Assembly (NCBI GenBank): GCA_002478275.1
Contig: DLMY01000017.1
Span: 1 to 32,251 of the forward strand
DNA: 32,251 bases
Direction of reading: 5' to 3'
DNA from: Actinobacteria bacterium UBA7524
GTDB lineage: Bacteria > Actinomycetota > Coriobacteriia > Anaerosomatales > UBA912
Below are positions 8,652 to 30,865 of this stretch, in pieces; positions within the stretch are counted from its first letter, which is position 1; each line of letters opens with the position of its first letter. The position numbers were made by a program, and so were the translations under genes. The notes below the pieces were generated by a model, which saw nothing but the letters and a program-made list of their open reading frames with translations, did not search any database and was not told where the DNA came from.

Positions 8652-8742
8652 GACTGTGTCTTCCTCATATCCATCGTCCACCACCCATGAGGATAGATGC
8701 CAGGAGTACCAACTGGAAAGTCCCGGTTATCCGTGGTGCGCT

Positions 8743-11356: not shown

Positions 11357-11806
11357 GTGTCAAACAAGCATGCGCCTCTAGGAAGCGCGGGAACGCCGAA
11401 GCGCCTGATGATCCGGCTGACGCCGGAGGACTACGACAGGCTTTCGGCCCTGGCGGCCCACGACGGCGTTGCGATGGCCGTCAAGGGGCGCGAGGTGATG
11501 CTGGCGGGGATGGATCCGCAGATCTTCGGTGAGCGTTACTACGACGTCGAGCGTCTACTACGCAGCGTTGTCAAAGCCGAGATGGAGACGCACTCGGAGC
11601 GGCTGCACAGGAGGCTCTATCGGGTCGGTGGCATCACGGCCGCGATGGTGTACTTCGTCCGCGAGATACTCGCCAGGGTCCTCGAACTCGATCCACACGG
11701 TGTCACGCAGATGTGGCGAGAGGCCGAGGGCCACGGGTTCAAGTACATGGGTGCGAAGCAGCCCGAATCGCGGCTGGACGATGACGGGGCGGGGAGCACG
11801 CCGTGA
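11357..11806 (+). CDS. Ribbon-helix-helix relaxosome accessory protein (MobC-like)
   Basis: 'KRLMIRLTPEDYDRLSALAAHDGVAMAVKGREVM' RHH pattern; GTGA overlap with the relaxase start. Confidence 0.7.
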   Translation: MSNKHAPLGSAGTPKRLMIRLTPEDYDRLSALAAHDGVAMAVKGREVMLAGMDPQIFGERYYDVERLLRSVVKAEMETHSERLHRRLYRVGGITAAMVYFVREILARVLELDPHGVTQMWREAEGHGFKYMGAKQPESRLDDDGAGSTP

Positions 11807-13323
11807 CACTCGGGCCTCTCGTCGTCAAAGTCAGCTACGCCGCTCCGAGCGCCGGGGACGGCGCGCACGCCACCTACATAGCCACGCGGCCCGGCACGGA
11901 CCTGACCGTCACGGCCGATTCGGTCGCACGGATGGTGACTCGCGATGTCGCAGACGACGCCACGTACACCCGCTACATCGCCGAGCGCCCGGGCGTCGTC
12001 GCCGACGGCGGGGCCCACGGCTTGTTCGACGAGAACGGCATCCCCGATATTGCCTCCGTCACCGATGAGCTCGCGGCTCTCTCGCACGCCCCGATCTACC
12101 GTGTGATCGTCTCCGTCAGCCGAGCTGACGCCGAGGAGATCGGCCTGGAGTCCAAGGCGCAGTGGGAGCGCCACGTTCGCGCCAGCGTCGACGCACTGTC
12201 CACGGCTACCGGAATCCCGCGAGAGAACATGCGCTGGGTGGCGGCCCACCACAATCCCGTGGCCGGGCATCCGCATGCGCACATCATGATCTGGGACAGG
12301 ACCGATAGTCCCGCGTTCAAGCGAGTAGTCCCCCAGCGGCGAGCGGGAGCAGGCCACATACCAGCTCCCCGGCTGAAGGCCCTTCGCGGGGCGTTCACTC
12401 GCGAGATCTACGGCGCAGTGCGCGAGGGCGTGTATGAGGCAAAGGGTCGCGCGCGCTCAGAGATCCGCATGTTCGGCACCACGTCCCTGTCTCTGGCCGT
12501 GGAGGAGCGCCGGCAGATCGGGGCGGGGCTCGCACTCCCCGCAGTCTCAGACCTCACGCGCGACCTGGATGCTCTGTCGCGCACACTGCCCGGGCGTGGC
12601 CGAGCGGCGTACAAGTACGTCTCACCTGAGACCAAGGCCGCAGTCGATCGGATCGTGGACAAGCTGATGTCAGCAGCGCCGATCGCCGAGCGGGTCACCG
12701 GGTATGCCGACGCCGCCGTGGAGCTCAAGCGCCATCACACCGCCGATCCCGATGAGCTCGCATCCGCGCGCGCCAACGCGGAGGCGGACGCGCGAGCACG
12801 GCTCGCCCCCGACGTGCTGCAGGCCGCCGTGAGCATCCAGATCCTGAGGACGGGCGAGGGCATCATACGGACTGCTCCGCTGGTGGTCCGCAACCACCTT
12901 CTCCAAGGGGCGCCCGAGCCGACACGTGTGTTCTACGCCCGGGCTCTCATGACCGCGGGGATCGACGCGCACACGGCAGCCAGCGTGATGGTCAAGTCGT
13001 GTAGGGGCGACGAGCCGCTCGAGGCTACGGCCCACCGCATCGCGGCCGTCTTCGCGGAAGCCCAACCTCTTCGCCCGTCCGAGTGGGCGGCGTGGCGCAA
13101 CGAGAATGCGCTCCCCGAGCTCTCGGCGGGACTTCAGCAGACCGCGGCCACGCTCCACCTGCTTGAGCAGGTATCACGGCATCTGTCTCCGCAGAGTGCC
13201 CCACGGGCCCAGGAGGTCGCACGGGTCGACTGGGGCCGGCTCGGACGAGCCACGAGCCCGACAGGGCGCACGGATGGGGGCCGCGGAATGACGCTCGACC
13301 CACGCGACGGCCTGTCGTCTTAG
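11803..13323 (+). CDS. MobP3/MobL-type HUH relaxase
   Basis: YIATRPG and YIAERPG tyrosine motifs, 'HGLF', 'RVIVSVSRADA', and HUH motif 'WVAAHHN...HPHAHIMIWD'. Confidence 0.88.
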   Translation: MTLGPLVVKVSYAAPSAGDGAHATYIATRPGTDLTVTADSVARMVTRDVADDATYTRYIAERPGVVADGGAHGLFDENGIPDIASVTDELAALSHAPIYRVIVSVSRADAEEIGLESKAQWERHVRASVDALSTATGIPRENMRWVAAHHNPVAGHPHAHIMIWDRTDSPAFKRVVPQRRAGAGHIPAPRLKALRGAFTREIYGAVREGVYEAKGRARSEIRMFGTTSLSLAVEERRQIGAGLALPAVSDLTRDLDALSRTLPGRGRAAYKYVSPETKAAVDRIVDKLMSAAPIAERVTGYADAAVELKRHHTADPDELASARANAEADARARLAPDVLQAAVSIQILRTGEGIIRTAPLVVRNHLLQGAPEPTRVFYARALMTAGIDAHTAASVMVKSCRGDEPLEATAHRIAAVFAEAQPLRPSEWAAWRNENALPELSAGLQQTAATLHLLEQVSRHLSPQSAPRAQEVARVDWGRLGRATSPTGRTDGGRGMTLDPRDGLSS

Positions 13324-13407
13324 AAGAACACTCCCGGAAAGGTAGTGCCAATGGCTGCCCGGTACGCTCAAGTGGGCGCTGTCCGCGAATCGATGAAGGA
13401 GACACGA

Positions 13408-14208
13408 ATGCAGAGAACGACCCGGAGGATCGCAATCGCCTCGCAGAAGGGCGGCGTCGGGAAGACGACCACGGCGTGGAACGTCGCGGCAGGGCTCACC
13501 GCCAAGGGACGCGACGTACTCGTCGTGGATCTCGACGGCCAGTGCCACCTGACCACCGGCGTGCTCGGCGCACCGCCAGCGCGAAGCCTGTGGGACGTGT
13601 TGATGGGCAGCATGATCGCCGAAGAGGCCATCGTGCCAGGCCCGGAGTTCGCGCTGCTACCCGCCTCCGAGATGCTGTCTCGCGCCGACTACGATCTCGG
13701 CGGCCGGCCGGGACGGGACTTCCTTCTCTCCCGCGCTCTGAAGGGCCGGCGCGATCCGGGGAGCGGCACACGGGCGCCGGGTGTGCAGGACGACTACGAC
13801 TACATCATCCTGGACTGCCCGCCGTCTCTCGGCATCATGACCGCCAACGCGCTCGCCTACGCCAGCGAGGTCATCGTCCCGGTCACCCCGGGGCTCTTCG
13901 CCGTCAGTGGGCTTGGGATGCTGGGCTCCGTCATCGCTGAGACGATCGACGCCGGCGTCAACGAGGACCTGGGAATCGCCGGCATCCTGCTCACTCAGTA
14001 CGAGGGTGGTACGGGTCTGCACCGCAGTATCGCGTCAGCCGTCGAGGAGCAGTTCCCCGGGCTGCTCTATCCGCTCGCGATCCGCAAGAACGTAGCGATC
14101 GGCGAAGCGCACGCCGAGGGCCGAAGCGTGCTGTCCTACGCGCCGAAGAGTCACGGCGCGGCCGACTACACCGAACTCGTCGAGCATCTGATCAGGCAGG
14201 AGGGTTAG
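13408..14208 (+). CDS. parA: ParA/Soj family partition ATPase
   Basis: SQKGGVGKTT, VDLDGQ, YDYIILDCPPSLG, IRKNVAIGEA; AAGGAG RBS before ATG 13408. Confidence 0.95.
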   Translation: MQRTTRRIAIASQKGGVGKTTTAWNVAAGLTAKGRDVLVVDLDGQCHLTTGVLGAPPARSLWDVLMGSMIAEEAIVPGPEFALLPASEMLSRADYDLGGRPGRDFLLSRALKGRRDPGSGTRAPGVQDDYDYIILDCPPSLGIMTANALAYASEVIVPVTPGLFAVSGLGMLGSVIAETIDAGVNEDLGIAGILLTQYEGGTGLHRSIASAVEEQFPGLLYPLAIRKNVAIGEAHAEGRSVLSYAPKSHGAADYTELVEHLIRQEG

Positions 14209-14210
14209 GC

Positions 14211-15164
14211 ATGGGGCGTCCGAGGATCGAGCGCGGTGCGAAGCAGGGCGACGTGATCAGGGATCGCGTGGCGGCCGTGGCCGCACGCTCCGCACGGCCA
14301 ACCAGTCTGCTCGGCCAGAAGACAGACAGGTCGGTGACCGTGCCCCTCGACCAGCTCCACCCGGATCCGCGCAACAACGAGGTGTTCGAGCTCGGAGGCA
14401 TCGAGGATCTGGCGCGCGATATCGAGGCCAACGGACTGGCCCACTACCCCGTCGTGCGTCCCCATCCCGAGTTCGAGGACGAGTACATGATCGTGGCTGG
14501 CCATCGCCGTCATGCGGCGCTCTCGCTGCTCGTCGAGCAGGGTCATGGTGGGCGCTTCGGGCAAGTGGTCTGCCACCTCGTGCCCTCCGATGAGCTGGAC
14601 TCTGGCGTGCTCATGCTCACCACCAACGTTCGGCAGCGCGACCTCTCCACACTGGAACGCATCCACACGATCGCCTTTGCCCAGAGACTCGTTGCTGAGC
14701 TTCGTGGAGCGGGGCGTCTGGAGGCGGGGACGACGACGGACGGCAAGATCGCCGAACTCGTCAACCTCGCGCCACGCACTGTCGCTTACTACCGTTCGCT
14801 GACCAAGCTCATCGAGGGACTTCGCGCCTTGCTCGATGAGCGGCGTATCACGTTCACGACGGCACGAGAGCTCGCACAGCAGCCCATCGATGTCCAGGAA
14901 CGCGTCCTGGCACAGATCGAGGCGGGGGAAGACGGCGCACTGAGTGGCGCGCAGGTGACCGCATTGACGGAGTCGGCGAGGACTAAGGAGCCGACCCCCG
15001 CCAAGGTTCCCGACGCCGAGAAGCTCATCACCGCGCTGGAACGTGCCGCCGAGAGGGTCTCGAGCCTGGAGCGGACCACGCCAGATGAAATCAGCACGTT
15101 CGCGCCGCGCATTGCCGCCGTGGCCGAACTCCTGGACACCATCGCCGCCAAGAGAGGGGTCTAG
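14211..15164 (+). CDS. parB: ParB/RepB/Spo0J family partition protein
   Basis: 'VPLDQLHPDPRN...IEDLARDIEANGL...YMIVAGHRRHAA...NVRQRDLS' plus HTH; directly after parA. Confidence 0.92.
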   Translation: MGRPRIERGAKQGDVIRDRVAAVAARSARPTSLLGQKTDRSVTVPLDQLHPDPRNNEVFELGGIEDLARDIEANGLAHYPVVRPHPEFEDEYMIVAGHRRHAALSLLVEQGHGGRFGQVVCHLVPSDELDSGVLMLTTNVRQRDLSTLERIHTIAFAQRLVAELRGAGRLEAGTTTDGKIAELVNLAPRTVAYYRSLTKLIEGLRALLDERRITFTTARELAQQPIDVQERVLAQIEAGEDGALSGAQVTALTESARTKEPTPAKVPDAEKLITALERAAERVSSLERTTPDEISTFAPRIAAVAELLDTIAAKRGV

Positions 15165-16672: not shown

Positions 16673-17593
16673 GTGCGGTTCGTTCGTTCAGGAGTGGCCA
16701 CAGTGGTTGCGGCGCTGGTCTTCTGCGCGCCTGCGTTCGGCGCGGGCGCGCCAGTGACTCGTGAGGTCATCGGCGTAGCAGAGCCCGATGATGCGCTTTT
16801 TGCGTCTTCGGTCGAGGAGAGCGGCACGGTCTATGTGCTCGACACGATCGACTGGACGGAGCGGTTCGAACGTGACAGGAGCGTCTGGCACGAGGTCGAG
16901 TACGACTTTGGCGCGCAGGTAGGCCAGGTGGAGCCGCCGGCCACGCTCGCTGCGCTCTACCACGACAGGGTGACGGGGGTCACGGTCGATGCGTCGCTTC
17001 ACTTCGAGCGGCTGGTGAACGCCGGCGCGTCGACGCGCGGTCGGGAGATCGAGGTCTTCGTCCACACGAGCTACGACACGGCGGCCTATGAGCTCACGCC
17101 GGAGGTGCTGGCCCGCTTCGATGCGCCGACGCCACAGCTCGCCGGTGTTGAGGTCTCGCGGGCGCTCCTCGAGGCGCTGCACTACGACCCTGCGGTCTAC
17201 CGGCTGGTCGAGGCCTCATGGACAGGGCCGGCGCGCAAGGACGGGGACAAGACGGTCCGCGAGGCGAGCTACACCGTGGAGCGGATCGCCGAGGTCCAGC
17301 GGGCGGTCTACGGCGGGGACGTGGCCCTGCCGGACGTGCTCGTCCACGACGGGGTCGCCACCTACCGCGCCCCGACAGCGCTGGAGGCAGTGACCAAGAC
17401 AGCCGCCGAAGCAGTTGAGACGGTTGCCGATGATCCCACATCGCTCGTGCCGTGGATCGTGGCTGGCGGCGTTGCCGCGACAACGATCCTCGGGGCGGTC
17501 TTCTACTGGCGGCGGAGGCGCCGCCGGGCGCTCGACGAGGACGACATCAGCTTGGAGCCCGGTGACCCTGAAATGGAGGGCGAAGATGCGTAG
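16673..17593 (+). CDS. Secreted/surface protein with signal peptide and C-terminal membrane anchor
   Basis: GAGGAGG RBS; signal peptide ending AFG-A; C-terminal hydrophobic helix followed by WRRRRRR. Confidence 0.75.
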   Translation: MRFVRSGVATVVAALVFCAPAFGAGAPVTREVIGVAEPDDALFASSVEESGTVYVLDTIDWTERFERDRSVWHEVEYDFGAQVGQVEPPATLAALYHDRVTGVTVDASLHFERLVNAGASTRGREIEVFVHTSYDTAAYELTPEVLARFDAPTPQLAGVEVSRALLEALHYDPAVYRLVEASWTGPARKDGDKTVREASYTVERIAEVQRAVYGGDVALPDVLVHDGVATYRAPTALEAVTKTAAEAVETVADDPTSLVPWIVAGGVAATTILGAVFYWRRRRRRALDEDDISLEPGDPEMEGEDA

Positions 17594-18302
17594 GCACCCG
17601 GTACTGGTCTCTGCTGTTCTCACCGCGCTCGTGTGTGGCGGCGTGATCGTGGCTGCATCCTTGAGCGCGCCAGACGCCGGGGGCGCCGTCGCTGCGGCGG
17701 GTGCCTCGCCAGATCCCGCGTCCTCCGCCGTCCCCGGGTATGCGATCTACTGGGACGAGTGGCCGGATACGGTGACAGCAGCTCCTGCCGAGGTGGCCGA
17801 GTCCCCCGAGACCGTCGTAGCCGTCGCGGCGCCGGAGACGTCGCCCCCAGCGGGCGAGACCGGGTCCGCGAGCTCATCGGGCAAGGCGGCCGCGCCGTGT
17901 CCGAGCAAGCCCGCTCCCGCACCTGAACCCGCCCCGGCCCCTGCGCCGGCCCCTGCACCGACGCCTGCACCCGCTCCTGCGGCTCCCGAGGTCATCGGCG
18001 GGTACGGCGCGTCGATCGCGAACTACATCAACCCGTCAGCGACCTATGACAGCGCACTCCAAAGCCAGTGCATCGCCCAGGCGAAGCGCATGGCGCTCGC
18101 CTCGGCGCTATCGCACTCGAGCTACGCCCCGGAGAGCTGCGCCAAGTTCGGCGACGGCATGACAGCGCTCGGCGGGGGTGGGGGAGGCGTGGCCGGCGCA
18201 CTCTACGGTCACTGTCCGCAACTCGGCTCGTGCTCACGCCTCGGCGTGGGGCTCGTGCTCTACAACGGTACGCTCTGGGCTGTTGCGCAAGGCGGCGAGT
18301 AG
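17586..18302 (+). CDS. Membrane-anchored Pro/Ala-linker protein with C-terminal CAP/SCP-like domain
   Basis: GGAGGG RBS; N-terminal TM; (PA)n linker; 'DSALQSQCIAQAKRMA..SALSHS...SRLGVGLVLYNGTLWAVAQ' resembles a CAP fold. Confidence 0.6.
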   Translation: MRRHPVLVSAVLTALVCGGVIVAASLSAPDAGGAVAAAGASPDPASSAVPGYAIYWDEWPDTVTAAPAEVAESPETVVAVAAPETSPPAGETGSASSSGKAAAPCPSKPAPAPEPAPAPAPAPAPTPAPAPAAPEVIGGYGASIANYINPSATYDSALQSQCIAQAKRMALASALSHSSYAPESCAKFGDGMTALGGGGGGVAGALYGHCPQLGSCSRLGVGLVLYNGTLWAVAQGGE

Positions 18303-18305
18303 CCC

Positions 18306-21248
18306 ATGCACACACGGACACTCACCACGCGCGTGCTCCTCATCCTCGCGCTGCTCTGTGGGTCGGCGGTCGCTTTGCCCGGTACGGCTTCGGCGGCCAC
18401 CGTCTCGACGGGCGGCGCGGGGACGTCGTACTACGACGCCTACTACTCGGGCTCATGGCACGATCTCCAGACGCCGCCGCACACGGTTGACGGGCAGGTC
18501 GCATACTGTCTCGAGCAGGCGAAGGACTTCCCCCTCAACAACTCGACGTACGGCCTGTTCGACCCGGCCGCGCTCTACAACTTCAATACCTACGTTGGTT
18601 TGCAGTCCATTCTTCACCGGGGGTATCCGTACGTGACCCCGGCCGGCCTGACCGAGACCCAGGCGCGCTACGCTACCGCGAACGCCATCCGTGCGTGGAT
18701 GCGCGAGGCGGCCGGCGTCGGCTACACGTTCATGGACATGAGCACCTACACGCAGGACGCTGCGACATGGTCGCGGTTGCGGCCGGCTCCGGGGCTCGGT
18801 GGATCCGAGCAGATGTTTCGCTGGACGATTGACCTCGTGACTGGCGCGCGCAACCGCGTACTCCCGGCCCGGAGCGTGAGCGCCGCGGCCGTCACGCTCC
18901 GACCGAACGCGGACTACACGCGGCTTGTCGGCCAGACGACGGTGTCGTTCAACGACCTCAACGGCTATTACACCGTCGCTGTGCCCGCCGGGGTCACCGT
19001 CACGGGCTACTCGAGCCATGCCGGAGACGTGCTCACCGTCTCCGTGCCTTGCAGCGCAGCCTGGATTGGCCGCTCGGTCTCGCTCACTCTCTACGGGTAC
19101 GACAGTCGTGTTCCAGCGAACATCTTCTACTACGCCCCTGGTGACACGTCGTACCAGCGGGTCGTATCTGCCCAGGCTTCGAGCTTCCAGGTCTCTGCTT
19201 CGGCCGCAGTTCCCGTTGGCTCCGGCTCGGGTGCTTTACGAATCACCAAGACCGATGTGGTCGACGGCGCACCACTGGGCGGCGCTGTCTTCGAGATCCT
19301 CTGGAACAGCACCGTCGTCGCTTCGGGCACGACGGACGCTGCGGGGGATCTCACGTTCACCGGGCTTGCTCCTGGCACCTGGACGGTCAGGGAACAGACC
19401 GCTCCGCAGGGCTACCTGCTCGACGTGACGCCGCATTCAGTCACGGTGCCCGATGGCGGCACCGCCACGCTCGAGCTCACCAACGAACGCGCCTTGCGGC
19501 CTGTGCGCGTCACCAAGACCGACTCGCTCACGGGCGCGGCCCTCGGGGGGGCCGCCTTCGAGATCCGCCAGGGCGTCACCGTCGTGGAGACGCTTACCAC
19601 GGGCGCTGACGGCACGGTGACGTCGGCACCCCTTCCCTTTGGTGACTACACGCTTGTTGAGACCGTGGCGCCGGCGAACCACATGCTCGACGCCACACCG
19701 TATCCGTTCACGATCAACGCAATCTCACCCGTCGTGATACAGATAGCGCGGACCGACCAGCCCTATCGCCCGATCACGCTCACTAAGACCGACGAGCTCA
19801 CAGGGGCGGTCCTTGAAAGGGCCGTCTTCGAGATCCGCCAGGGCGTCAGCGTCACGGAGACGCTCACCACCGGTGCTGACGGCACGGCGACGTCGGCACC
19901 CCTTCCCTTCGGCGACTACGAGCTCGTGGAAGTGACAGCGCCGACAGGCTATGTTCTCGATACCGTCGTGACCACATTCACCGTCGATGCGGCTTCATCT
20001 GCGGCCTTCGAGTTCACACGCACCGATTCGCGCGTGCGCGGCACTGTGCGGCTGGAGAAGCGCTCGGACGGGCAAGACGCACGGCTTCTCCCGGGTGCGG
20101 TCTACGAGATCTGGCGCGTGCGCGATACATCGCCGCTTGCAGCACCGTTCGATCCGGCCGAGGACCCGACGGATCCGGTCGCCACTCTCACGACCGACGC
20201 TCAGGGCGTTGCGCGATCCGAACCGCTCGAGTACGGCTGCTATTACGCGATAGAGACGACCGCGCCCGTGGGTCACGCACTCAATCCCACGCGGCACTAC
20301 TTCGAGATCCGCGAGGACGAGGCCCTCATCTCCCTTGATCTCACCGACGAGGTTCTGCCGGTGAACCACGGCGGGGTGATGCTGCGCTACCGGAACATCT
20401 GGGATGGCACGGAGATCGCCAAAGCGTGGGGCTACAACGCTGAGATTGGCACCGAGTACATGCCGCGTGTCCGGGCCGAAGGTCTCGACAAGATGCCTAT
20501 CGAGGGCTTCTCGTACGTGACAGCCGACTACGCACCCTATGCCGAGCTCGTCGACGGCAAGCTGCTGGTCACGTACTGGTACCGGCAGACCGTCTCCGGC
20601 GACTGGCTCAAGGTCCGCACCGGCGACGACGGCCGAGCACGGCTCACGGCGCAAGACCGCGAGACCTACGGACTGCTCTCGAATGCCGAGCTCTACTCGC
20701 GACTCCTTGAGGCGAAGGTCGCGAACCCGGATGTGATCGGCTACCTCTCGATACCTGGCACCGACCTCCATGAGCCGGTGGTGCAGACGACGGACAACGT
20801 CACCTACCTCACACACGAAGCAGACGGCGATGCCGACGCGCGAGGAGCGATCTTCGCCGACTACCGCTCGCCGCGCTATGCTGGCGACAGCTCGCACGCG
20901 ACGCTGCTCCACGGCCACAACATGCGGGACGGCTCGATGTTCGGCGTTCTCGCCTCCTATGGGGACGCGGACTTCTGGGCGGCGCACCCCTTCATCCAGT
21001 ACGTGGATGCCGCCGGCAACGGCGGGACGTGGCTCGTCTACTCGGCGCGTGTGGCCGATGGCTCCGACGATGCGTTTGCGTTCCCGGTCACGCGGCCGTA
21101 TGCGGATCGCATTGCGCGATGGGCGGATCGCTCGTTCCTGGATCCCGGCTTCCGGCCGGATCCCGCCGGACGTACGCTCACGCTTTCCACGTGCGCGTAT
21201 CACGTTGAGGACGGGAAGTTGCTGGTGCATGCGGCGCTGATCGACTAG
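18306..21248 (+). CDS. Adhesin-sortase fusion: thioester domain + 4 SpaA/Cna-B isopeptide domains + MucBP-like domain + class B sortase
   Basis: Signal peptide; 'VAYCLEQ' thioester motif; four 'K.D...L.GA.FEI...TT...G...L..G.Y...E..AP.GY.L' units; 'VMLRYR...IEGFSYV...VTYWY' MucBP-like; SrtB motifs 'IGYLSIPGT..EPVVQ..DN..YL', 'GAIFAD', 'HGHNMRDGSMFG', 'LTLSTC'. Confidence 0.85.
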   Translation: MHTRTLTTRVLLILALLCGSAVALPGTASAATVSTGGAGTSYYDAYYSGSWHDLQTPPHTVDGQVAYCLEQAKDFPLNNSTYGLFDPAALYNFNTYVGLQSILHRGYPYVTPAGLTETQARYATANAIRAWMREAAGVGYTFMDMSTYTQDAATWSRLRPAPGLGGSEQMFRWTIDLVTGARNRVLPARSVSAAAVTLRPNADYTRLVGQTTVSFNDLNGYYTVAVPAGVTVTGYSSHAGDVLTVSVPCSAAWIGRSVSLTLYGYDSRVPANIFYYAPGDTSYQRVVSAQASSFQVSASAAVPVGSGSGALRITKTDVVDGAPLGGAVFEILWNSTVVASGTTDAAGDLTFTGLAPGTWTVREQTAPQGYLLDVTPHSVTVPDGGTATLELTNERALRPVRVTKTDSLTGAALGGAAFEIRQGVTVVETLTTGADGTVTSAPLPFGDYTLVETVAPANHMLDATPYPFTINAISPVVIQIARTDQPYRPITLTKTDELTGAVLERAVFEIRQGVSVTETLTTGADGTATSAPLPFGDYELVEVTAPTGYVLDTVVTTFTVDAASSAAFEFTRTDSRVRGTVRLEKRSDGQDARLLPGAVYEIWRVRDTSPLAAPFDPAEDPTDPVATLTTDAQGVARSEPLEYGCYYAIETTAPVGHALNPTRHYFEIREDEALISLDLTDEVLPVNHGGVMLRYRNIWDGTEIAKAWGYNAEIGTEYMPRVRAEGLDKMPIEGFSYVTADYAPYAELVDGKLLVTYWYRQTVSGDWLKVRTGDDGRARLTAQDRETYGLLSNAELYSRLLEAKVANPDVIGYLSIPGTDLHEPVVQTTDNVTYLTHEADGDADARGAIFADYRSPRYAGDSSHATLLHGHNMRDGSMFGVLASYGDADFWAAHPFIQYVDAAGNGGTWLVYSARVADGSDDAFAFPVTRPYADRIARWADRSFLDPGFRPDPAGRTLTLSTCAYHVEDGKLLVHAALID
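19512..19970 (+). repeat. 270-bp-period direct repeat (recently duplicated SpaA domain)
   Basis: TTCGAGATCCGCCAGGGCGTCA and GACGTCGGCACCCCTTCCCTT are each present twice, 270 bp apart. Confidence 0.8.
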
Positions 21249-21259
21249 ACGCCGACGAC

Positions 21260-21288
21260 CGCCGGTCGGGGGAACACCTCGGCCGGCG
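21260..21288 (+). terminator. Terminator-like hairpin ending the surface-protein operon
   Basis: CGCCGGTCGGGG...CCTCGGCCGGCG stem, 11 nt after the stop. Confidence 0.6.
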
Positions 21289-21379
21289 CTCTTGCGAGGT
21301 GCGTGTCATGAGCGAAGCGTGTAGTTTCAACTGCTAACCGAACATCTGACCGTGCTCAAGCGAAATCCGCTCACCTGTC

Positions 21380-22597
21380 CTACTCCCATCGCTTCAGAGC
21401 TCTCAGGGCCTCGGTCAAGTCCTCTGCCACGACGAGCCGATCGGTCTCAAGCCACTCGTCTAGCCCTAGAAGGTCGTGATTCCATGGTTGGCTGACGAGG
21501 ATTGCGCGACCGTCTCCTTTCGCCAAGAAGTCAGCGATATTCGACGGGTAGTCGTCGACCAGGTAGTCAAGCTCCGCGAGCGACTTCTTCCCAGGGAAGA
21601 CATGGAGAAGGCAGTCGTAGGAGTTCAGGCCGTGCCAAGTCAACCAGTGCTTCGTGAGCTCATTGGTTGACTCAGGTCGCGCCGTGACGATTAGAACGCG
21701 ATGCCGACCGGCTACACCGTTTATCAGCGAAGCAGCGCCAGGTCGTACCGGCATGCTGAGAATGTAGTCCTTGTGACCCAGCGCCTCTTCGATTTCCGTC
21801 TTGATGTCATGCTCGTCATCAAGCTTGCAGTCCCATGCCGTGATATCGCTCGCCCTCAGAACGAGTCCGTACTTCAGTCGAACGCGTTCCAGCACGCCGG
21901 CTATCTGATCTGCGAGGACGCCGTCAATGTCGATTCCGACGGTGCTTCGCCGCCGCCGCTGGTTCTTCTTCAGAGCCTTCTCGAGAGGGCGCACAAACAG
22001 CCGGTAGAGGACCATCAGTGCTAGCGCGGCGGACAGGAAGACACCATTCTTGCCCGGTGTGCTGGGCGCTGTGGCGCCGTACGCCGCGGCGAGCAGCGTG
22101 AAGCTGATGAAGCCGATGCCCAGTGAGATCAGGCCGCTCGCCCGAGGGCCAAACACCATCTTGCGCAGCACACCGGCCACCGTGTAAGCAACGAACACCA
22201 AGGCCAATGTCTCAAGATAGGGAAGGACTGTCGCTGACGGGTTCACAGCGATGCCTGGGACCAGTAGAGCGAGGCGGGCATAGAGCGCCACGATGCACAG
22301 GTCCACCACGATCCGCAGGTACTCACGGGCGACGGGCCACCAGGTGAGTGGACTGTTGTGCACAACATCGGAATCACGAGAGAGCAGGTAAGGGTTTGCG
22401 GAGGTGGTGCGATGCCAGTCGATCCAGCTCAGAACGGCTGTGATGAAGACCCCCAGCAGGGCCATGCTCGCAACCGGAGATTGGCTTGGCTGGAGGAATA
22501 CATCCTTGTTGGTCACCAATCCGTCCCCGAGAACCACAGCAAACAACACCTGCACCATGGTGACCATCTGCTGCGAGAGTGCTTCATCTCGGTTCAT
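21380..22597 (-). CDS. Multi-pass membrane protein fused to HAD-family 5'(3')-nucleotidase (NT5C-like)
   Basis: About 6 hydrophobic helices at the N-terminus; HAD motifs DIDGVLAD, IVTAR, K, LVDD and 'QPWN'; GGGGGA RBS. Confidence 0.8.
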   Translation of the reverse strand: MNRDEALSQQMVTMVQVLFAVVLGDGLVTNKDVFLQPSQSPVASMALLGVFITAVLSWIDWHRTTSANPYLLSRDSDVVHNSPLTWWPVAREYLRIVVDLCIVALYARLALLVPGIAVNPSATVLPYLETLALVFVAYTVAGVLRKMVFGPRASGLISLGIGFISFTLLAAAYGATAPSTPGKNGVFLSAALALMVLYRLFVRPLEKALKKNQRRRRSTVGIDIDGVLADQIAGVLERVRLKYGLVLRASDITAWDCKLDDEHDIKTEIEEALGHKDYILSMPVRPGAASLINGVAGRHRVLIVTARPESTNELTKHWLTWHGLNSYDCLLHVFPGKKSLAELDYLVDDYPSNIADFLAKGDGRAILVSQPWNHDLLGLDEWLETDRLVVAEDLTEALRALKRWE

Positions 22598-23107: not shown

Positions 23108-24223
23108 ATGCTTGATGATCGCAAGATGCACGAGGAGACCGCGTCAATAGCCGAGACGGGTCATCTCGAAGACAACGTAGTTGCCGATGCCATCTCGCAC
23201 GAGTCTCTGGGAGAGGCAGAGGGCGACCCGCAACTGGCATTCCGCACCGCGCTCGGGCGTGCGTTCAAGGGCGATTCCGCAATCGCACTGCCGAGGCTCG
23301 TGGCCCCCGAATCCGTGGACTTGATCATGACGAGTCCGCCGTTTGGGCTGGTTCGCAAGAAGCAATACGGGAACGTCGATGCTGATGACTACACCGACTG
23401 GTTCAGGGACTTTGCGGAGGCATTTACCAAGGTTCTGAAGCCGACCGGCAGCTTGGTAATCGATCTCGGAGGAGCCTGGAATCGCGGTCAACCGACCCGA
23501 AGCCTGTATCACTTCGAAGTGATGATCATGTTGTGCCGTGAGTACGGGTTTCACCTGGCCCAGGAGTTCTACTGGTGGAATCCAGCCAAGCTGCCATCGC
23601 CCGCGCAGTGGGTCACGATTAAGCGGACGAGAGTCAAAGATGCGGTCAACTGCATTTGGTGGCTCTCGAAGTCTCCCAATCCGAAGGCATCGAACCTGCG
23701 GGTCTTGCAGCCCTATTCGTCAAGCATGCGCAGCCTGCTCAAGAACGGCTATCAATCGGGGACGCGACCCAGCGGACATGTGATTTCCGATAGGTTCGGG
23801 ACCGACCATGGCGGAGCGATTCCGCCCAACCTGCTCGCGCTCGCGAACACGGAGAGTAACGGCGCGTACCAGCGCTACTGTCGGCAGAACGGACTCATCG
23901 AGCACCCTGCGCGCTTTCCGGTGGGCATACCTGAGTTCTTCGTACGGATGCTGACCGACAAAGGTGACCTGGTGGTTGACCCGTTCGCTGGTAGCTGCGT
24001 CACCGGCGAGGCCGCCGAGGCACTTGGCAGACGGTGGGTTGGCATCGAGCTTCGCGAGGACTACCTATCCGGGGCAAAGGGGCGCTTTCCATCGCTAGAT
24101 GACCCCACTACAGTCGCACCTCCTGTTCGTCGCAGGTCGGAGCCGTACCTGGCCTTCCCGCCGAACGTCTTGGCTGAGGATCTCGATCGGCGTGCGGAAG
24201 AAGCTGGCGATGAACATGCGTGA
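23108..24223 (+). CDS. Beta-class amino DNA methyltransferase (N4-cytosine type, M.PvuII-like)
   Basis: Motif IV 'VDLIMTSPPF' precedes 'HPARFP' and motif I 'VVDPFAGSCVTG'. Confidence 0.92.
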   Translation: MLDDRKMHEETASIAETGHLEDNVVADAISHESLGEAEGDPQLAFRTALGRAFKGDSAIALPRLVAPESVDLIMTSPPFGLVRKKQYGNVDADDYTDWFRDFAEAFTKVLKPTGSLVIDLGGAWNRGQPTRSLYHFEVMIMLCREYGFHLAQEFYWWNPAKLPSPAQWVTIKRTRVKDAVNCIWWLSKSPNPKASNLRVLQPYSSSMRSLLKNGYQSGTRPSGHVISDRFGTDHGGAIPPNLLALANTESNGAYQRYCRQNGLIEHPARFPVGIPEFFVRMLTDKGDLVVDPFAGSCVTGEAAEALGRRWVGIELREDYLSGAKGRFPSLDDPTTVAPPVRRRSEPYLAFPPNVLAEDLDRRAEEAGDEHA

Positions 24224-24737
24224 TGGCTGTGCAAAGGTCAACGGGGCCTTCCTCGCTGCCCTGGGGGACAGTGTTCTCAGCCACGGTGCAACTAGCTCGA
24301 AGCCACTGGAGGTAGACCTCGCGCCTCCACTCCCGCATAGAATCCGTGCGTATCTGTACCGGGTCACCGGTCCGCCGGGTGGTCGCACGCCGGGGGAGCA
24401 CAAGATCCAGCTGATTCTCCCCGGTCAGGATCGAGGAGCCAGGGCTTCGCTGGACTACTCGGGCGGGCGGATTGTCATATTGGGAGGTCTGCAAGCTGAC
24501 CTGGGGGTATTCGTCCTCTGGGACTCGGCCAAGTACGTCGACTTCTCCTATTCCCGCAACGTGCAGGTGCGCCTCGAGACGATTCTGGCCGCGCTCGGCG
24601 GCGGGATCGCGACCCAAACGCGCTCAATCCGTGGACAGGGGCGTGAAACGGTGATTGCGTGCGTGCCGGACATGCTTCCGCAGGCGCTGCAGATGCGCCT
24701 GGATCTGACCGCTGACGGCCTGGGTCAATCATCATGA
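24210..24737 (+). CDS. Methylase-associated X1 (MTaX1)-like protein, stand-alone
   Basis: 'RAYLYRVTGPPGGRTPGEHKIQLILPG...ILGG...VFVLWD...FSYSRNVQV' is recalled as the MTaX1 pattern; overlaps both neighbouring genes. Confidence 0.55.
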   Translation: MNMRDGCAKVNGAFLAALGDSVLSHGATSSKPLEVDLAPPLPHRIRAYLYRVTGPPGGRTPGEHKIQLILPGQDRGARASLDYSGGRIVILGGLQADLGVFVLWDSAKYVDFSYSRNVQVRLETILAALGGGIATQTRSIRGQGRETVIACVPDMLPQALQMRLDLTADGLGQSS

Positions 24738-26833
24738 GCGAGCCATTGAAGGCCTTGTCGCTCGCGACCTCCTATCACAAGGGCGAGAACGATATCGCGG
24801 CTGAGTTCTACCTTCCGTGCATGCGGAATGCTGTCTCATACGACCGCGCAGTGGGCTTCTTCAGCAGTAGCATCTATGTCTTGGCATGGCCAGAACTCGT
24901 GGGCTTCGTCGAGCGTCGAGGAAAGATGCGCATTGTCTGTTCGCCGATCCTGTCTCCTGACGATGTCGAAGCCATACGCTTGGGCTGTGGCGCCGAGGTT
25001 GAGGCGCGGATAGACCAGCAGATCGCAAGGGAGATTCGGTCGCTAGCTGCCGATGAAGTCCTCGGGAAGCCGACGCGCGTACTCGCGACTCTAGTCCAGA
25101 TCGGTGTCGTCGAGATAAGGCTGGCCTTCATGACGAACACGACTCCCGCGCACGCACGCATATTCCATGACAAGCTCGGTATATTCGCCGACCCCGATGG
25201 AAACGCCGTCGCATTCCGTGGTTCGATGAACGAGACGTGGTCCGGCCTCTCGTTCGATGGAAACCTAGAGTCCGTAGACGTCTACTTGGGCTGGGATGAA
25301 GGCAGGGATGCGGAGCGTGTGAGAACGGAGACCGCGTACTTTGAGCGGCTCTGGGAGAACGACTACCCAGGCGTCCAAGTGCGACGCTTTCCCGATATCA
25401 GCGCGGAAGAACTGAGTGCCTACTCGGATCGGTCTGCCTGGCCGGAGTGGGTCAAGGAGATCCAGGAAGGCGTCGAAGCGGCACCGCGCACGCCCGGCGG
25501 ACGTGTTCCTCGCAAGCATCAATTGGATGCTCTGGCGGCGTGGGAGGAGCGCGGCAGACGCGGGATTCTCAAGCACGCTACAGGCAGCGGGAAGACGTTC
25601 ACCGCATTGCTGGCGATCCGAGATTCGCTCCTTCGTGGGGAATCCGTTCTCGTCCTCGTTCCAAGCCGGCTCCTGTTGCGGCAGTGGTACAAGGAAATCG
25701 CCGAGACCCTGGAAGACTTGCGCCCAAAGATACTCAGGTGTGGAGACGGCCACGACGAATGGCGCACGAAGCACCTCCTGAGCTCTTGGACGTCCCCAGA
25801 GGCGAGAGACTCAATCGTTCTGTCCACGCTGGGGTCCGCCGCCACGGAGCAGTTCTTGAGTTCCGTGCGGCAAGGAGACCATCTCATGGTCGTTGCCGAT
25901 GAGGTGCACAGGCTAGGCAGCTTGGGCAACCGCGCGATCTTCAGTCTACAGACGGGGGCGAGGCTCGGGTTGAGCGCAACTCCCGAACGCTTCCGCGATG
26001 AAGAGGGCACCGCGGCTATCTTCACGTACTTCGACGGGTTGATTCCCGTGCCCTTTACTTTGAGGGACGGCATCCATTGTGGAGCGCTCGTTCCCTATTT
26101 CTACTACCCGAGGACTGTAGCGCTCGCGGAGGACGAGCAAGAATCCTGGGACGCTGCTACCGCGCAGATCCGTCAGCTGGTCGCTCGCCGGGAACAGGAA
26201 GGTGCTGATCGAGCCAGTCTCGAGCGTCAGCTTCAAGAGCTCTGGATACGACGAGCGCGGATCATCAAGAGAGCCAGAGGGAAGGTGGCTCTCGCGGTTG
26301 CGACCCTGTCGGAGGAATACGAGGATGGACAGAAGTGGCTCGTCTACTGCGAGGACTCGACGCAGCTGACCGAAGTTCTTGACGCCATCCGGGCGGCCGG
26401 AATCCGCGCGCATGAGTACCACACCCAGATGCCGGGGGACCGAGACCAAACGATGGTGTACTTCAGCGAGTTCGGTGGAGTCCTGGTCGCGATAAAGTGC
26501 CTGGACGAGGGTGTTGATATACCGGATGTGACTCACGCCCTGATACTGGCCTCGTCGAAGAACCCCAGGGAATTCATACAGCGGCGAGGCAGGGTACTTC
26601 GGAAGGCGCCCGGGAAGCACTTGGCCTTCGTGTACGATCCAGTCGTAACGCCGTGCATTGGGGATGAGGGGGAACCTGATCCAGGCATCGTCGTGGGGGA
26701 GATGGGTCGCGCAATCGAGTTCGCACGTGACGCCGAGAACCCGTCGGCAGCATCGGACCTCGAACGGATCGCGGGTCGTTACGGAGTTGATTGGGCGGAC
26801 TTCGTTGAGGAGGGCATTGAAGATGAGAGCTAG
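24734..26833 (+). CDS. PLD-like (HKD) nuclease domain fused to SF2 DEAD/DEAH (ResIII-like) helicase
   Basis: 'IFHDKLGIFAD...FRGSMNET' PLD motif; ATGSGKT, DEVH, LSATP, LDEGVDIP, IQRRGRVLR. Confidence 0.9.
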   Translation: MSEPLKALSLATSYHKGENDIAAEFYLPCMRNAVSYDRAVGFFSSSIYVLAWPELVGFVERRGKMRIVCSPILSPDDVEAIRLGCGAEVEARIDQQIAREIRSLAADEVLGKPTRVLATLVQIGVVEIRLAFMTNTTPAHARIFHDKLGIFADPDGNAVAFRGSMNETWSGLSFDGNLESVDVYLGWDEGRDAERVRTETAYFERLWENDYPGVQVRRFPDISAEELSAYSDRSAWPEWVKEIQEGVEAAPRTPGGRVPRKHQLDALAAWEERGRRGILKHATGSGKTFTALLAIRDSLLRGESVLVLVPSRLLLRQWYKEIAETLEDLRPKILRCGDGHDEWRTKHLLSSWTSPEARDSIVLSTLGSAATEQFLSSVRQGDHLMVVADEVHRLGSLGNRAIFSLQTGARLGLSATPERFRDEEGTAAIFTYFDGLIPVPFTLRDGIHCGALVPYFYYPRTVALAEDEQESWDAATAQIRQLVARREQEGADRASLERQLQELWIRRARIIKRARGKVALAVATLSEEYEDGQKWLVYCEDSTQLTEVLDAIRAAGIRAHEYHTQMPGDRDQTMVYFSEFGGVLVAIKCLDEGVDIPDVTHALILASSKNPREFIQRRGRVLRKAPGKHLAFVYDPVVTPCIGDEGEPDPGIVVGEMGRAIEFARDAENPSAASDLERIAGRYGVDWADFVEEGIEDES

Positions 26834-27014
26834 CCTGGAAGAGCTTCTCAAGACCATCGAAGGCCTTCGCAGCGAGAAGCAGTCTGAGATTCGCGCGGAC
26901 CTGGTGGTGTCCATCGTGGAGACCGAGTCGACATTCGTCGATCGTCGAGCCGATGCAGTGAAGTCGATTTCGGATCTGCTCGATGAGAGCCTAGAGACCG
27001 GGGGGGCTGAATAG
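26823..27014 (+). CDS. Small helical protein (63 aa) between helicase and SMC ATPase
   Basis: GAGGAGGG upstream; overlaps the helicase stop; ends 1 nt before the next start. Confidence 0.7.
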   Translation: MRASLEELLKTIEGLRSEKQSEIRADLVVSIVETESTFVDRRADAVKSISDLLDESLETGGAE

Positions 27015-27015
27015 C

Positions 27016-28983
27016 GTGCTCAGACTGCACAGGCTCGAGGTGGAGGATTTCGGCCCGTTCCGAGGCAAGCAGGAGATCTGCTTCCCGCGCGACGCTGGAG
27101 TCACGGTGATCCGCGGCGAGAATATGCACGGGAAGACGTCAGTGCTCAACGCGTTGCGGTTCGCCCTCTTCGGCAAGGTGCTGGGACGAGGATCGAGGCC
27201 TATCCCGATCCACCAGCTCATCAACTGGGCGACTGCAGAAGAGGGGAACCACCGACTCTCGGTCTCGCTGGAGTTCGCCTTCGAAGATGAGGAATATGAG
27301 CTTCGGCGTCGACTCAAACCGAGGTCGGGAGTGGGGATCCCGGCGGGCGAGGCTGACTACGAGACACTCGTGACGCTCACCCGTGGTGGGGTGGTGCTGT
27401 CACCAGAACAGACTGAGCGCGAGATGGCTCGCATCATGCCTCTAGAGATCGCCCGGTTCTTCCTGTTCGACGGGGAGCTCCTTCAGGAGTACGAGGACCT
27501 ACTGCTTGAAGAGACGAGCGCCGGCTTCGAGATCAAGCGAGCGATCGAGCGGATCCTGGGGCTTCCTGTACTCACGAACGCCAGACGCGATCTCGAGACA
27601 GTTGTCAACGACGTCGGAAAGCAGGAGTCCAAAGAGGCTCAGAAGGACGCCAAGACACAGCAAATCGGAAGTGCGCTCCAGGCGCTGCAGGAAAGCCGAA
27701 AGCACCACGAGCGTGAGGTCACTCGTCTACAGGGCGAGGAAGACGGGCTGAAGGCTGAGGAATCGGAGCTCAACCTCTACCTGAATCCCCAAGAAGCGGT
27801 CAGGGCGCTCATAGAGAAGAAGGCCGTCCTCAAGTCCGACATGGGACGGCTGCGTAACGAGCGCGCCCAGAACGTCGAAGACCTCCGCGGAATGCTCTCA
27901 GATGCATGGCGCTGGGTTGCCGGTCCGATCCTGGAGGAACGCGCGCACACCCTGCGGAGTCAGATTGACATCCTCGAAGGCGAAATCGAGCACGCTCGCG
28001 TGTCGACTCAGGCTGACCTCATGCGATCCAGCAGCCTTGCGGCGGAGGAGTGCACGCTTTGCGGCCAGCACCTCGACGCCGGAGCCAAGCAGCACCTGTC
28101 CTCCATGATCGAGGATCTGGACGATGACATCGCGTTGAAGAAGGAGTCCGTAGCTGCTCTGCAGCGCAAGGCTGTGCTGCTGGAAGCGCTTCAGCCGGAC
28201 ACCCCAGCCTCCGAGGCCAGACGGATCATGGAGGCCAACCGGAAGATCGACGTGAACTACCAGACCATGAAGGATGACCTGGCCGATGTTGACGAGGACT
28301 TGGCCGCCTTCGATGAGAAGTCGATTGCGAGCGCGATTGAGCGGCTCAAGAGAATCGTCCAGGAGCTTCAGACAGTGCAGAAGGCGAAGCGTGATGAGCG
28401 CGAGGCCGCCGAGAAGGACACTCAGAACATCCGTGGCCTGCAAGACAAGCTGGACAAGATCGGCAGTATCTCTCTCGAGAGACTACGCAGGAAGCGCCTC
28501 TTGGCTGAGAGCCTCAAGCGTCTCTTCGGAGACTCGGTCGATGTCTACCGGAGTCTCCTCCAGGTGCGAGTGGAGAAGGACGCCACCGACCTGTTCCTGA
28601 AGCTCACCACGGAACGCGAGTACGGGGCTCTGTCCATCAACGACAAGTACGGCCTGAGCATCATCCATAGCGACGGCACGCCTGTCACGGTGAGATCAGC
28701 GGGAGCCGAACACATTGTCGCTCTCTCACTGATGGGCGCGCTCCAGAAGAACGCGCCACTCAAGGGCCCGATCGTAATGGACTCTCCATTTGGTCGCTTG
28801 GACGAACAACATACGAACAACGTAATCGCCGCGCTTCCGGTCATGGCAGAGCAGACGGTCCTGCTCGTCTACGAGAAGGAAGTAGATATCGATAGCGCGA
28901 GGGCTATCCTCGCAGGTCGAATTCGCGCCGAGTATCTGCTGCGTCGCGTCTCTGCCAAAGAGACGCGAATCGAGAAGGCCTAG
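27016..28983 (+). CDS. DndD/Rad50-like SMC ABC-ATPase with zinc hook
   Basis: Walker A GENMHGKTS, 'FFLFDGE', coiled coils, CTLC hook, signature RSAGAE, Walker B/D-loop 'IVMDSPFGRLD'. Confidence 0.9.
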   Translation: MLRLHRLEVEDFGPFRGKQEICFPRDAGVTVIRGENMHGKTSVLNALRFALFGKVLGRGSRPIPIHQLINWATAEEGNHRLSVSLEFAFEDEEYELRRRLKPRSGVGIPAGEADYETLVTLTRGGVVLSPEQTEREMARIMPLEIARFFLFDGELLQEYEDLLLEETSAGFEIKRAIERILGLPVLTNARRDLETVVNDVGKQESKEAQKDAKTQQIGSALQALQESRKHHEREVTRLQGEEDGLKAEESELNLYLNPQEAVRALIEKKAVLKSDMGRLRNERAQNVEDLRGMLSDAWRWVAGPILEERAHTLRSQIDILEGEIEHARVSTQADLMRSSSLAAEECTLCGQHLDAGAKQHLSSMIEDLDDDIALKKESVAALQRKAVLLEALQPDTPASEARRIMEANRKIDVNYQTMKDDLADVDEDLAAFDEKSIASAIERLKRIVQELQTVQKAKRDEREAAEKDTQNIRGLQDKLDKIGSISLERLRRKRLLAESLKRLFGDSVDVYRSLLQVRVEKDATDLFLKLTTEREYGALSINDKYGLSIIHSDGTPVTVRSAGAEHIVALSLMGALQKNAPLKGPIVMDSPFGRLDEQHTNNVIAALPVMAEQTVLLVYEKEVDIDSARAILAGRIRAEYLLRRVSAKETRIEKA

Positions 28984-30663: not shown

Positions 30664-30865
30664 GATGCCTCCTCTNNNNNNNNNNNNNNNNNNNNNNNNN
30701 NNNNNNNNNNNNNNNNNNNNNNNNNNNNNNNNNNNNNNNNNNNNNNNNNNNNNNNNNNNNNNNNNNNNNNNNNNNNNNNNNNNNNNNNNNNNNNNNNNNN
30801 NNNNNNNNNNNNNNNNNNNNNNNNNNNNNNNNNNNNNNNNNNNNGGTTCGGCCACGATGCCTCCT

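Follow-up and report, generated by a model that had tools for sequence, protein, structure and literature searches.

The 32,251-nt window analyzed here is an entire contig (DLMY01000017.1, C54; G+C content of 62%) of Actinobacteria bacterium UBA7524, a metagenome-assembled genome (MAG) of 1.81 Mb in 60 contigs that is 83% complete. At positions 18306 to 21248, it carries a single unbroken open reading frame (ORF) of 980 codons, the product of which combines a signal peptide, a class II thioester domain (TED), four SpaA domains, a beta domain, a linker, and a class B sortase domain, in this order (coordinates refer to the plus strand unless indicated otherwise). An initial annotation, made from the sequence alone, had described this ORF as an uninterrupted fusion of a thioester adhesin with its own sortase, and direct reading of the frame bears this out. 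As a rule, a sortase is a different protein from its substrate, and the two come together at the membrane. In the present protein, enzyme and presumed substrate share one chain, the membrane anchor of the enzyme is gone, and the main family of such proteins has lost the catalytic Arg as well. Five runs of N (330 to 510, 3939 to 4055, 30476 to 30520, 30676 to 30844, and 31676 to 31919; 756 bases in total) are present in the window, none of them in or adjoining the adhesin-sortase gene.

The protein starts with a Sec-type signal peptide (residues 1 to 30; positions 18306 to 18395), with a putative cleavage site between PGTASA and AT that follows the AxA pattern, and a KD19 value of 2.18 within the first 45 residues. 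Beyond residue 45, no membrane segment was found at the threshold used (KD19 of at least 1.6; maximum, 1.25). A C-terminal LPXTG signal with a hydrophobic segment and charged tail is likewise absent from the fused protein, in which polar sequence follows G773. The sorting signal and transmembrane anchor are thus indeed missing, as first noted. This extends to the family, which is counted here as 23 clusters at 90% identity (the source protein and 22 further ones): 25 of 26 anchorless family proteins show no segment with a KD19 of at least 1.6 past residue 45, the exception being P0019, where it lies at residue 287, far from the sortase.

The head of the protein (residues ~31 to 300; positions 18396 to 19205) was assigned as a class II TED. 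Pfam TED matches residues 65 to 128 with 22.4 bits, just over the cut-off of 22, and the TQXA domain scores 17.1 bits in the head, under its cut-off. When an AlphaFold2 (AF2) model of residues 30 to 310 (predicted local distance difference test [pLDDT] score of 71.6) was used in a Foldseek search, the top matches were the class II TEDs 6fwy (EfmTIE86; E value of 1.2e-7), 6fwv (BaTIE), and 6fx6 (SaTIE). The assignment rests on Pfam and this fold search, because a profile of the N-terminal 310 residues gave only a chance match to a Fab among the PDB sequences (E value of 0.13). Cys68, in AYCLE, is conserved in 23/23 family members. Gln119, in TQARY, is aligned in 19 of them, with a shifted TQxxLW in three others and Glu in P0020. 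Judged from this alignment, both the Cys and the Gln partner for a thioester are present. The thioester domain of the initial annotation therefore stands, with the correction that the Gln partner is Q119 of TQARY and not the Q of YCLEQ. The head is followed by a stalk of four SpaA/CnaB-type domains (residues ~301 to 688; positions 19206 to 20369), the number originally counted, which Pfam SpaA covers in four stretches with 235.8 bits. In a phmmer search against the PDB, 6fwv (Bacillus anthracis TIE protein) aligns to stalk residues 279 to 554 (E value of 4e-23), and the isopeptide-type Lys/Glu/Asn-Asp pattern in the stalk was read by eye.

The C terminus (residues 796 to 980; positions 20691 to 21245) consists of a class B sortase (MEROPS C60B) catalytic domain that has no membrane anchor. 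Pfam Sortase (PF04203) matches residues 814 to 978 with 33.3 bits (cut-off, 26.6), and phmmer aligns residues 802 to 979 to the SrtB proteins of Listeria monocytogenes, B. anthracis, Staphylococcus aureus, and Clostridium in the PDB, with E values of 3.5e-21 to 5e-11; the best matches include L. monocytogenes 5jcv (3.5e-21) and B. anthracis 2oqw. With an AF2 model of residues 684 to 980 (pLDDT of 66.9 overall and 80 to 90 in the sortase core), all Foldseek matches listed to rank 19 are class B sortases (E values of 4.6e-14 to 4e-11; TMt of 0.60 to 0.74), in agreement with the complete SrtB domain that had been predicted. The catalytic residues recognized at the outset could also be placed. The codon for His871 (HGHNM) lies at 20916 to 20918, this residue being conserved in 17/17 and in 126/127 aligned sequences, with a gap as the exception, and the codon for Cys963 (TLSTC; 127/127 aligned) lies at 21192 to 21194. 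Both residues, together with the TLSTC and GHNMRD signatures, are unchanged in relatives down to 58% identity.

At the position of the catalytic Arg, located on strand beta8 in class B sortases, the protein has Lys971 (codon at 21216 to 21218), which stands opposite the Arg of B. anthracis SrtB (2oqw) in the alignment. This substitution, already noted at the outset, occurs in 23/23 family clusters. An alignment of 127 rows (the query domain, 120 short matches, and 6 long ones) shows Lys in seven rows, all belonging to this family and four of them contig-edge fragments, and Arg in the other 120/120. The catalytic Arg is regarded as universal in sortases. In a tree of 70 sortase domains, the family is monophyletic on a very long stem of 2.44 changes per column, which comes with a long-branch warning.

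The replaced Arg, the long stem branch, and the missing membrane anchor would all suit a second explanation, the repurposed sortase fold offered earlier as an alternative. The fold might then be a non-transpeptidase module, such as a peptidoglycan- or peptide-binding anchor, or a protease that only sheds the adhesin by hydrolysis, with the Lys marking the loss of classical catalysis. Moreover, TIEpLS20 shows that attachment of a conjugative TIE adhesin is possible in the absence of a sortase (PMC8092201). However, the invariance of His871, Cys963, TLSTC, and GHNMRD would be needless in a pure binding module, the C-terminal module is the best conserved part of the protein, and an Arg-type sister group (P0183, below) has the same anchorless architecture. 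We therefore disfavor repurposing and consider it quite unlikely.

Between stalk and sortase lie two segments. The first is a conserved, beta-rich domain that belongs to no named family (residues 689 to 760; positions 20370 to 20585; AF2 pLDDT of 36 to 56). Its earlier description as MucBP-like could not be confirmed: Pfam has no match for residues 679 to 770, even at an E value of 10, and the MucBP (PF06458) lead given by Atlas, at 0.78, is sub-threshold and counts as a lead only. The second is a linker (residues 761 to 795; positions 20586 to 20690), predicted to be disordered, with a pLDDT below 50 for residues 759 to 778. This linker contains, some 20 residues ahead of the sortase fold, the conserved sorting-type motif WLKVRTGDDG (residues 767 to 776; positions 20604 to 20633), in which the bond between T772 and G773 is the proposed scissile bond. 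Over the 23 clusters, the column counts are W 23, V 22 (V/I 23), T 22, G 23, D 23, D 22, and G 22, with variable neighbors, and [V/I]-x-T-G-D-[D/A]-G is found in the linker of 22/23. The distance from W to T is 5, 6, or 9 residues at a fixed T-G-D, which suggests a linear motif rather than a fixed turn. A complex prediction of the sortase domain (fragment 98 to 297) with the motif segment (fragment 60 to 97) scored 0.00; it was run without controls and carries no weight either way.

The degree of conservation differs along the chain. The mean identity of the 22 relatives to P0001 amounts to 57% in the signal peptide, 72% in the TED, 72% in the SpaA stalk, 87% in the beta domain, which is conserved best of all segments, 78% in the linker, and 83% in the sortase. 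In the most distant members (P0021 to P0023), the TED is 25 to 27% and the stalk 35 to 37% identical, compared to 64 to 67% for the beta domain and 58 to 60% for the sortase. By this measure, the C-terminal module appears as a constant cassette below a variable adhesive head, as sorting signals do in ordinary surface proteins.

A length-restricted search with the sortase region yielded 29 proteins of 539 to 1,715 amino acids (aa), 22 of which (P0002 to P0023) have the full architecture, with a sortase part that is 58 to 95% identical; most originate from MAGs of Coriobacteriia or "Actinobacteria". When one genome per species was scanned, 15 family loci (L004 to L018) were found, comprising 7 full-length ORFs (890 to 1,014 aa) on contigs of 35 to 479 kb, 6 ORFs cut by contig ends, and 2 5'-truncated remnants. 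Possible misassembly across the adhesin-sortase junction was checked with assembled contigs. Logan contigs of three DNA runs, each from a different study (groundwater, wastewater, and hydrocarbon metagenomes), tile positions 18200 to 21400 with zero indels or joints, leaving the open frame intact, and one contig spans 20476 to 21400 with 0 differences. As the best DNA run may be the sample of origin, these runs amount to two or three independent confirmations. An artifact, i.e., a misassembly, missed stop, or frameshift between separate adhesin and sortase genes, might be suspected because the 32-kb MAG contig has N runs in other places and the same MAG holds a second, fragmented copy of the gene. 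The full-length frame in 7 other loci and 22 other protein clusters and the uninterrupted contigs of the three DNA runs contradict this explanation, the probability of which we consider virtually negligible. The fusion is real and under selection.

The sortase domain has no close stand-alone counterpart. An exhaustive HMMER scan of 1.84 billion representatives retrieved about five 50%-identity clusters of the family, followed by a drop to 41% identity, the best value outside the fused family and its fragments, and revealed P0183. Searching the 185-aa domain at near lengths gave at most 37% identity outside the same set. In a survey of 401 genomes of the class, 16 genomes (including the source genome) have a strong match (E value of ≤1e-59), all of them in the order of the source, and six more have ordinary sortases only (256 to 395 aa; E values of 1e-25 to 1e-21). 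None of the four other genomes of the source's family has a strong match. Such a patchy distribution fits a mobile element.

Three further observations concern the spread of the gene. The two remnants (L005, 9602 to 10921, and L012, 6809 to 8128) are open frames of 439 aa that run from mid-stalk to sortase, lack a signal peptide, and sit beside housekeeping genes; they look like decayed elements. The second copy in the source MAG is divided over two minus-strand fragments (C29, 3 to 617, and C6, 3496 to 3693) that are 95% and 92% identical to residues 719 to 921 and 915 to 980, respectively, and it keeps V-R-T-G-D-D-G; it represents either a second element or a strain variant. In a sludge metatranscriptome run (X16), contigs that are mostly 90 to 99% alike cover 18856 to 19207, 19995 to 20259, and 20393 to 20707, including the linker. 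These contigs come from a relative and the library may hold DNA, and they are not taken as support for expression.

Related fusions and unfused sortases give the linker motif its context. A sister subgroup (P0183, P0343, P0344, and P0330, a cluster member) shares this anchorless architecture, and the 4/4 proteins read have retained the catalytic Arg; P0183 itself, a protein of 1,323 aa with 17 member sequences, is from Coriobacteriia. Because this group shares the architecture, the lack of an anchor is independent of the loss of Arg. At the aligned place, its members have W-K-N-I-G-V-A-P-K-T-G-D, which includes a canonical x-P-x-T-G, so that K-V-R-T-G (residues 769 to 773), an internal pentapeptide that ends in T-G and is devoid of Pro, is aligned to A-P-K-T-G. 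In P0025 and P0026, a single ORF encodes a SpaA stalk, V-P-Q-T-G-D-D, a hydrophobic segment, a basic tail, a second membrane segment, and an SrtB domain with Arg. P0025 is listed with SpaA stalk domains, and P0026 additionally has a TED; the latter has 95 member sequences (Acetatifactor/Clostridiaceae; WP_300869344.1, from an uncultured Acetatifactor) and is named only "SrtB family sortase" in the database. Among the 11 nearest unfused SrtB loci examined, an upstream sorting signal is readable in five (A-P-P-T-G-D-D, A-L-K-T-G-D-G, S-T-Q-T-G-D-Y, V-P-K-T-G-D-G, and P-P-Q-T-G-D-Y), and no upstream substrate was found by a simple ORF rule in the other six. From the P0183 group, P0025 and P0026, and the unfused loci, T-G-D therefore emerges as the hallmark of this sortase neighborhood, in which Pro at position 2 is not obligatory. 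On the strength of the same comparisons (the aligned motif of the P0183 group, the full signals of P0025 and P0026, and the substrates of the unfused loci), the linker motif can be read as a sorting motif stripped of its hydrophobic and charged parts. The three natural stages, namely separate genes, a membrane-hairpin fusion, and an anchorless fusion with Arg or Lys, form an evolutionary series at hand for experiment.

Other natural sortase fusions were seen among the relatives, outside this series. In P0200 (559 aa), a P-P-Y-T-G-D sorting signal and a membrane hairpin link two sortase domains, P0189 has the order sortase, M23 peptidase, sortase, and P0312 carries a cytoplasmic CinA/MoCF module ahead of a membrane-anchored sortase. 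According to precomputed annotation, six of the proteins P0345 to P0351 have the same Pfam families as P0312, and P0347 differs in architecture.

Parts of the protein resemble known systems. The TIE proteins BaTIE (6fwv), EfmTIE86 (6fwy), and SaTIE (6fx6) likewise have an N-terminal class II TED with Cys and Gln and an isopeptide-type stalk. However, these proteins end in LPXTG and are anchored by a separate sortase, as stated in PMC8092201, whereas the fused protein ends in a sortase domain. With class B sortases (SrtB of S. aureus, B. anthracis, L. monocytogenes, and Clostridioides difficile; Spy0129), the C-terminal domain shares the fold, the Cys of TLSTC, and the His of GHNM. It differs from them in having no N-terminal anchor, in its Lys for Arg, and in its place behind the presumed substrate, and identity is 20 to 28% in aligned stretches. 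The P0026 fusion, of Lachnospiraceae type, also combines a TED, a SpaA stalk, x-P-x-T-G-D-D, and a class B sortase in one ORF, but it has a full sorting signal, a sortase membrane segment (hairpin), and Arg, and its sortase domain is 36% identical; our searches turned up no study of it. As to whether the anchorless and hairpin fusions had one or two origins, the tree of 70 domains supports neither claim. A search for natural sortase-substrate fusions in the literature, with subscription journals outside its reach, found no describing paper and engineered fusions only, and databases label the fused proteins "SrtB family sortase" or "SpaA pilin-related". In the engineered self-cleaving fusions (Mao's method; BISOP, PMC2901362), enzyme and LPXTG motif are also in one chain, which is cut at the motif. 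Those constructs are artificial, place SrtA N-terminal to the motif, serve tag removal, and are resolved by hydrolysis or added glycine, in contrast to the natural protein described here, in which the motif is N-terminal to a class B domain.

Our preferred reading, which we give about an even chance of being correct, is that the gene encodes a mating adhesin of an integrative conjugative element (ICE) of uncultured Coriobacteriia, in which a self-substrate sortase cassette stands where the sorting signal used to be. The adhesin would consist of a class II TED able to bond its target covalently and an isopeptide-type SpaA stalk, and a cassette of beta domain, flexible motif-bearing linker, and anchorless class B sortase would take the place of the usual sorting signal. 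After Sec export of the protein, the sortase domain would bind [V/I]-x-T-G-D of its own chain or of a neighboring copy. Cys963 would then cut between T772 and G773 and hold the adhesin as a thioacyl intermediate until an amine resolves it, most likely one of the peptidoglycan stem peptide or cross-bridge of the donor wall. The adhesin would in this way become covalently displayed, with release of a 208-residue sortase fragment. The tether between enzyme and substrate would stand in for membrane co-localization and for retention by a hydrophobic segment and tail, and the cassette would make the element independent of the host sortase. Cleavage, acceptor, and mating role are what we infer here. 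The chemistry is feasible, as engineered SrtA-motif fusions self-cleave in one chain (PMC2901362). Known class B motifs are (S/P)PxTG for C. difficile SrtB (PMC4155245) and (E/Q/V)(V/P)PTG, with a Lys acceptor, for Spy0129 (PMC3019223); the latter enzyme, with EVPTG, illustrates that class B sortases take motifs with Val at position 2 and Lys acceptors.

Several points weigh against self-cleavage by this cassette. The self-cleavage step is a prediction from sequence comparison, and it is not obvious how an enzyme without a membrane anchor would reach lipid II. The domain scores 101 bits with the NCBIfam class B sortase model TIGR03064, under the equivalog cut-off of 153.75, and the long stem of its clade could mean a changed function. 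Lys occupies the catalytic Arg position throughout the family, and the R197K variant of S. aureus SrtA is reportedly severely impaired; the literature search returned no R197K data. The motif of the Lys-type proteins does not have the Pro usual in sorting motifs, and in one cluster (P0012), it reads V-R-A-G-D-D-D with the domain otherwise intact. AF2 leaves the linker outside the active site, at a pLDDT below 50. Finally, C. difficile SrtB left NVQTG uncleaved in vitro (PMC4155245), for which reason NVQTG was also ruled out as a precedent for Val at position 2.

A more far-reaching variant sees the protein as an armed, single-turnover ligase. Once the bond between T772 and G773 is cut, the thioester-held C terminus of the adhesin would be captured by the family-specific Lys971 beside the active site as an internal isopeptide, or ligated by the secreted acyl-enzyme to amines of any wall it meets, including that of the recipient. 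As the N-terminal TED would bond at its own end, the protein would connect donor and recipient covalently at both ends, and the changes from Arg to Lys and from Pro to Val would be a co-evolved, private pair. We regard this variant as very unlikely.

The genes around the fusion place it on a mobile element. A tyrosine integrase is encoded at 1271 to 2614 on the minus strand (Pfam Phage_integrase; E value of 4.5e-21). The adhesin-sortase gene is the last of a plus-strand block with the order RadC, orf181, MobP3 relaxase, ParA, ParB-like, orf404, orf103, orf306, orf295, and adhesin-sortase. Within this block, the MobP3-family relaxase (11803 to 13323) scores 173.7 bits with NCBIfam NF041499 (cut-off, 150) and matches Pfam MobL weakly, and the ParA and ParB-like partition genes (13345 to 15164) match AAA_31/CbiA and, weakly, ParB_N. 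Directly upstream of the fusion are orf306 (16673 to 17593), a conserved companion that encodes a secreted protein, and orf295 (17595 to 18302; start uncertain), the product of which reads as a membrane-anchored, Pro/Ala-rich protein with a Cys-containing C-terminal domain; the orf295 stop is 3 nt ahead of the adhesin ATG. No Pfam or NCBIfam family was found for either. Past the adhesin-sortase gene, variable cargo is followed by minus-strand genes for an NlpC/P60 protein, a VirB4-like ATPase, and TrbL/VirB6. In the window, these are represented by an NlpC/P60 cell-wall hydrolase, the first gene of a type IV secretion system block (29555 to 30343, minus strand; Pfam E value of 3.3e-21), and by a fragment of a VirB4/TraG-type P-loop ATPase broken by N runs (30866 to 31675, minus strand), which scores 24.9 bits with Pfam P-loop_TraG, below the cut-off, and 19.2 bits with TrwB_AAD_bind. 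The full-length homologue of this fragment in L009 reaches 56.1 bits with P-loop_TraG. Relatives have the same succession of NlpC/P60, VirB4-like ATPase, and TrbL/VirB6-like gene, and in L009 and L011, both the VirB4-like and the TrbL-like gene at this place are full.

The plus-strand block is complete in L006, L009, L011, L014, and L018; L013 retains ParA through the adhesin, and L015, at 53% identity, retains MobL, ParA, orf404, orf306, and the adhesin. By its gene content, the element is an ICE with a Gram-positive type IV secretion system, in which the coupling protein was not identified.

The mating adhesin proposed in the initial annotation is a fair reading because the gene is on a conjugative element and because of the analogy to TIEpLS20; the self-attachment proposed along with it gains support from the conserved linker motif and its canonical A-P-K-T-G-D counterpart in the sister subgroup. 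The analysis gave no support for the cross-linking of a recipient through the sortase that had been proposed as well. TIEpLS20 (pLS20 gene 34 of Bacillus subtilis; PMC8092201) is also a class II TED adhesin on a conjugative element without a classical sorting signal, and it is needed for efficient mating in liquid. It has no sortase domain and is independent of host sortases, in contrast to the fused protein with its built-in sortase; the two were compared by domain types only.

The companion gene orf306 bears on a further explanation, namely that the fused domain is a trans-acting sortase for the orf306 protein, for other adhesin copies via a stalk lysine, or for host LPXTG proteins, and that the linker motif is structural or otherwise used. 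In each of the three subgroups examined, the orf306 gene occurs together with the fused gene. It lies upstream in L006, L009, L011, L013, L014, L015, and L018, has 34% identity in the Arg-type L060 (10420 to 11403), and is located at 7103 to 8128 in L061. The encoded protein consists of a signal peptide, an ectodomain of ~250 aa, D-P-x-S-[LI]-x-P-W, and a C-terminal membrane segment that is followed by an R-rich stretch and a long acidic tail, and Atlas relates it to "LPXTG cell wall anchor" clusters (0.93, with low recognition), which is taken as a lead only. In addition, Spy0129-type class B sortases polymerize pilins onto Lys (PMC3019223), and the host MAG encodes an LPFTG protein that could serve as a substrate. 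Nevertheless, the orf306 protein shows no T-G type motif and, across seven homologues, no invariant Lys in its ectodomain; it was accordingly dropped as a Lys-bearing acceptor and stays a lead only. Furthermore, proteins with a classical sorting signal are absent from the window and from L004 to L018, the sole match to the clade hallmark x-x-x-T-G-D is the protein's own motif, and the host MAG already has an Arg-bearing housekeeping sortase. A trans-acting role thus seems unlikely to us.

Specific to the present system are the anchorless cassette, the graded natural series, the family-wide change from Arg to Lys coupled with that from Pro to Val in the motif, and the carriage on a conjugative element. 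If the cassette does cleave and attach itself, mobile elements would have in it a portable anchoring device that does not depend on the host. It would also provide a testable answer to the question raised by TIEpLS20, of how thioester adhesins of conjugative elements arrive at the wall when they have no sorting signal. In addition, it would be a natural counterpart of the engineered self-cleaving sortase tags and possibly a new T-G-D-specific ligation tool. Under the armed-ligase variant, donor and recipient would be joined by one protein that is bonded covalently at both ends.

The variable cargo between the plus-strand block and the secretion genes is a defense-type island in the window (23108 to 28983) that differs between related elements. 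It encodes a type II methyltransferase (PADLOC MTase_II, 358 bits), MTaX1 (Pfam), PbeA (680 bits), and the DndD-like PbeC (636 bits). Elsewhere in the window, a minus-strand gene at 6504 to 8684 encodes a P-loop ATPase of 726 aa that matches the candidate defense family PDC-M49A with 131.6 bits and, weakly, AriA/PtuA-type ATPases.

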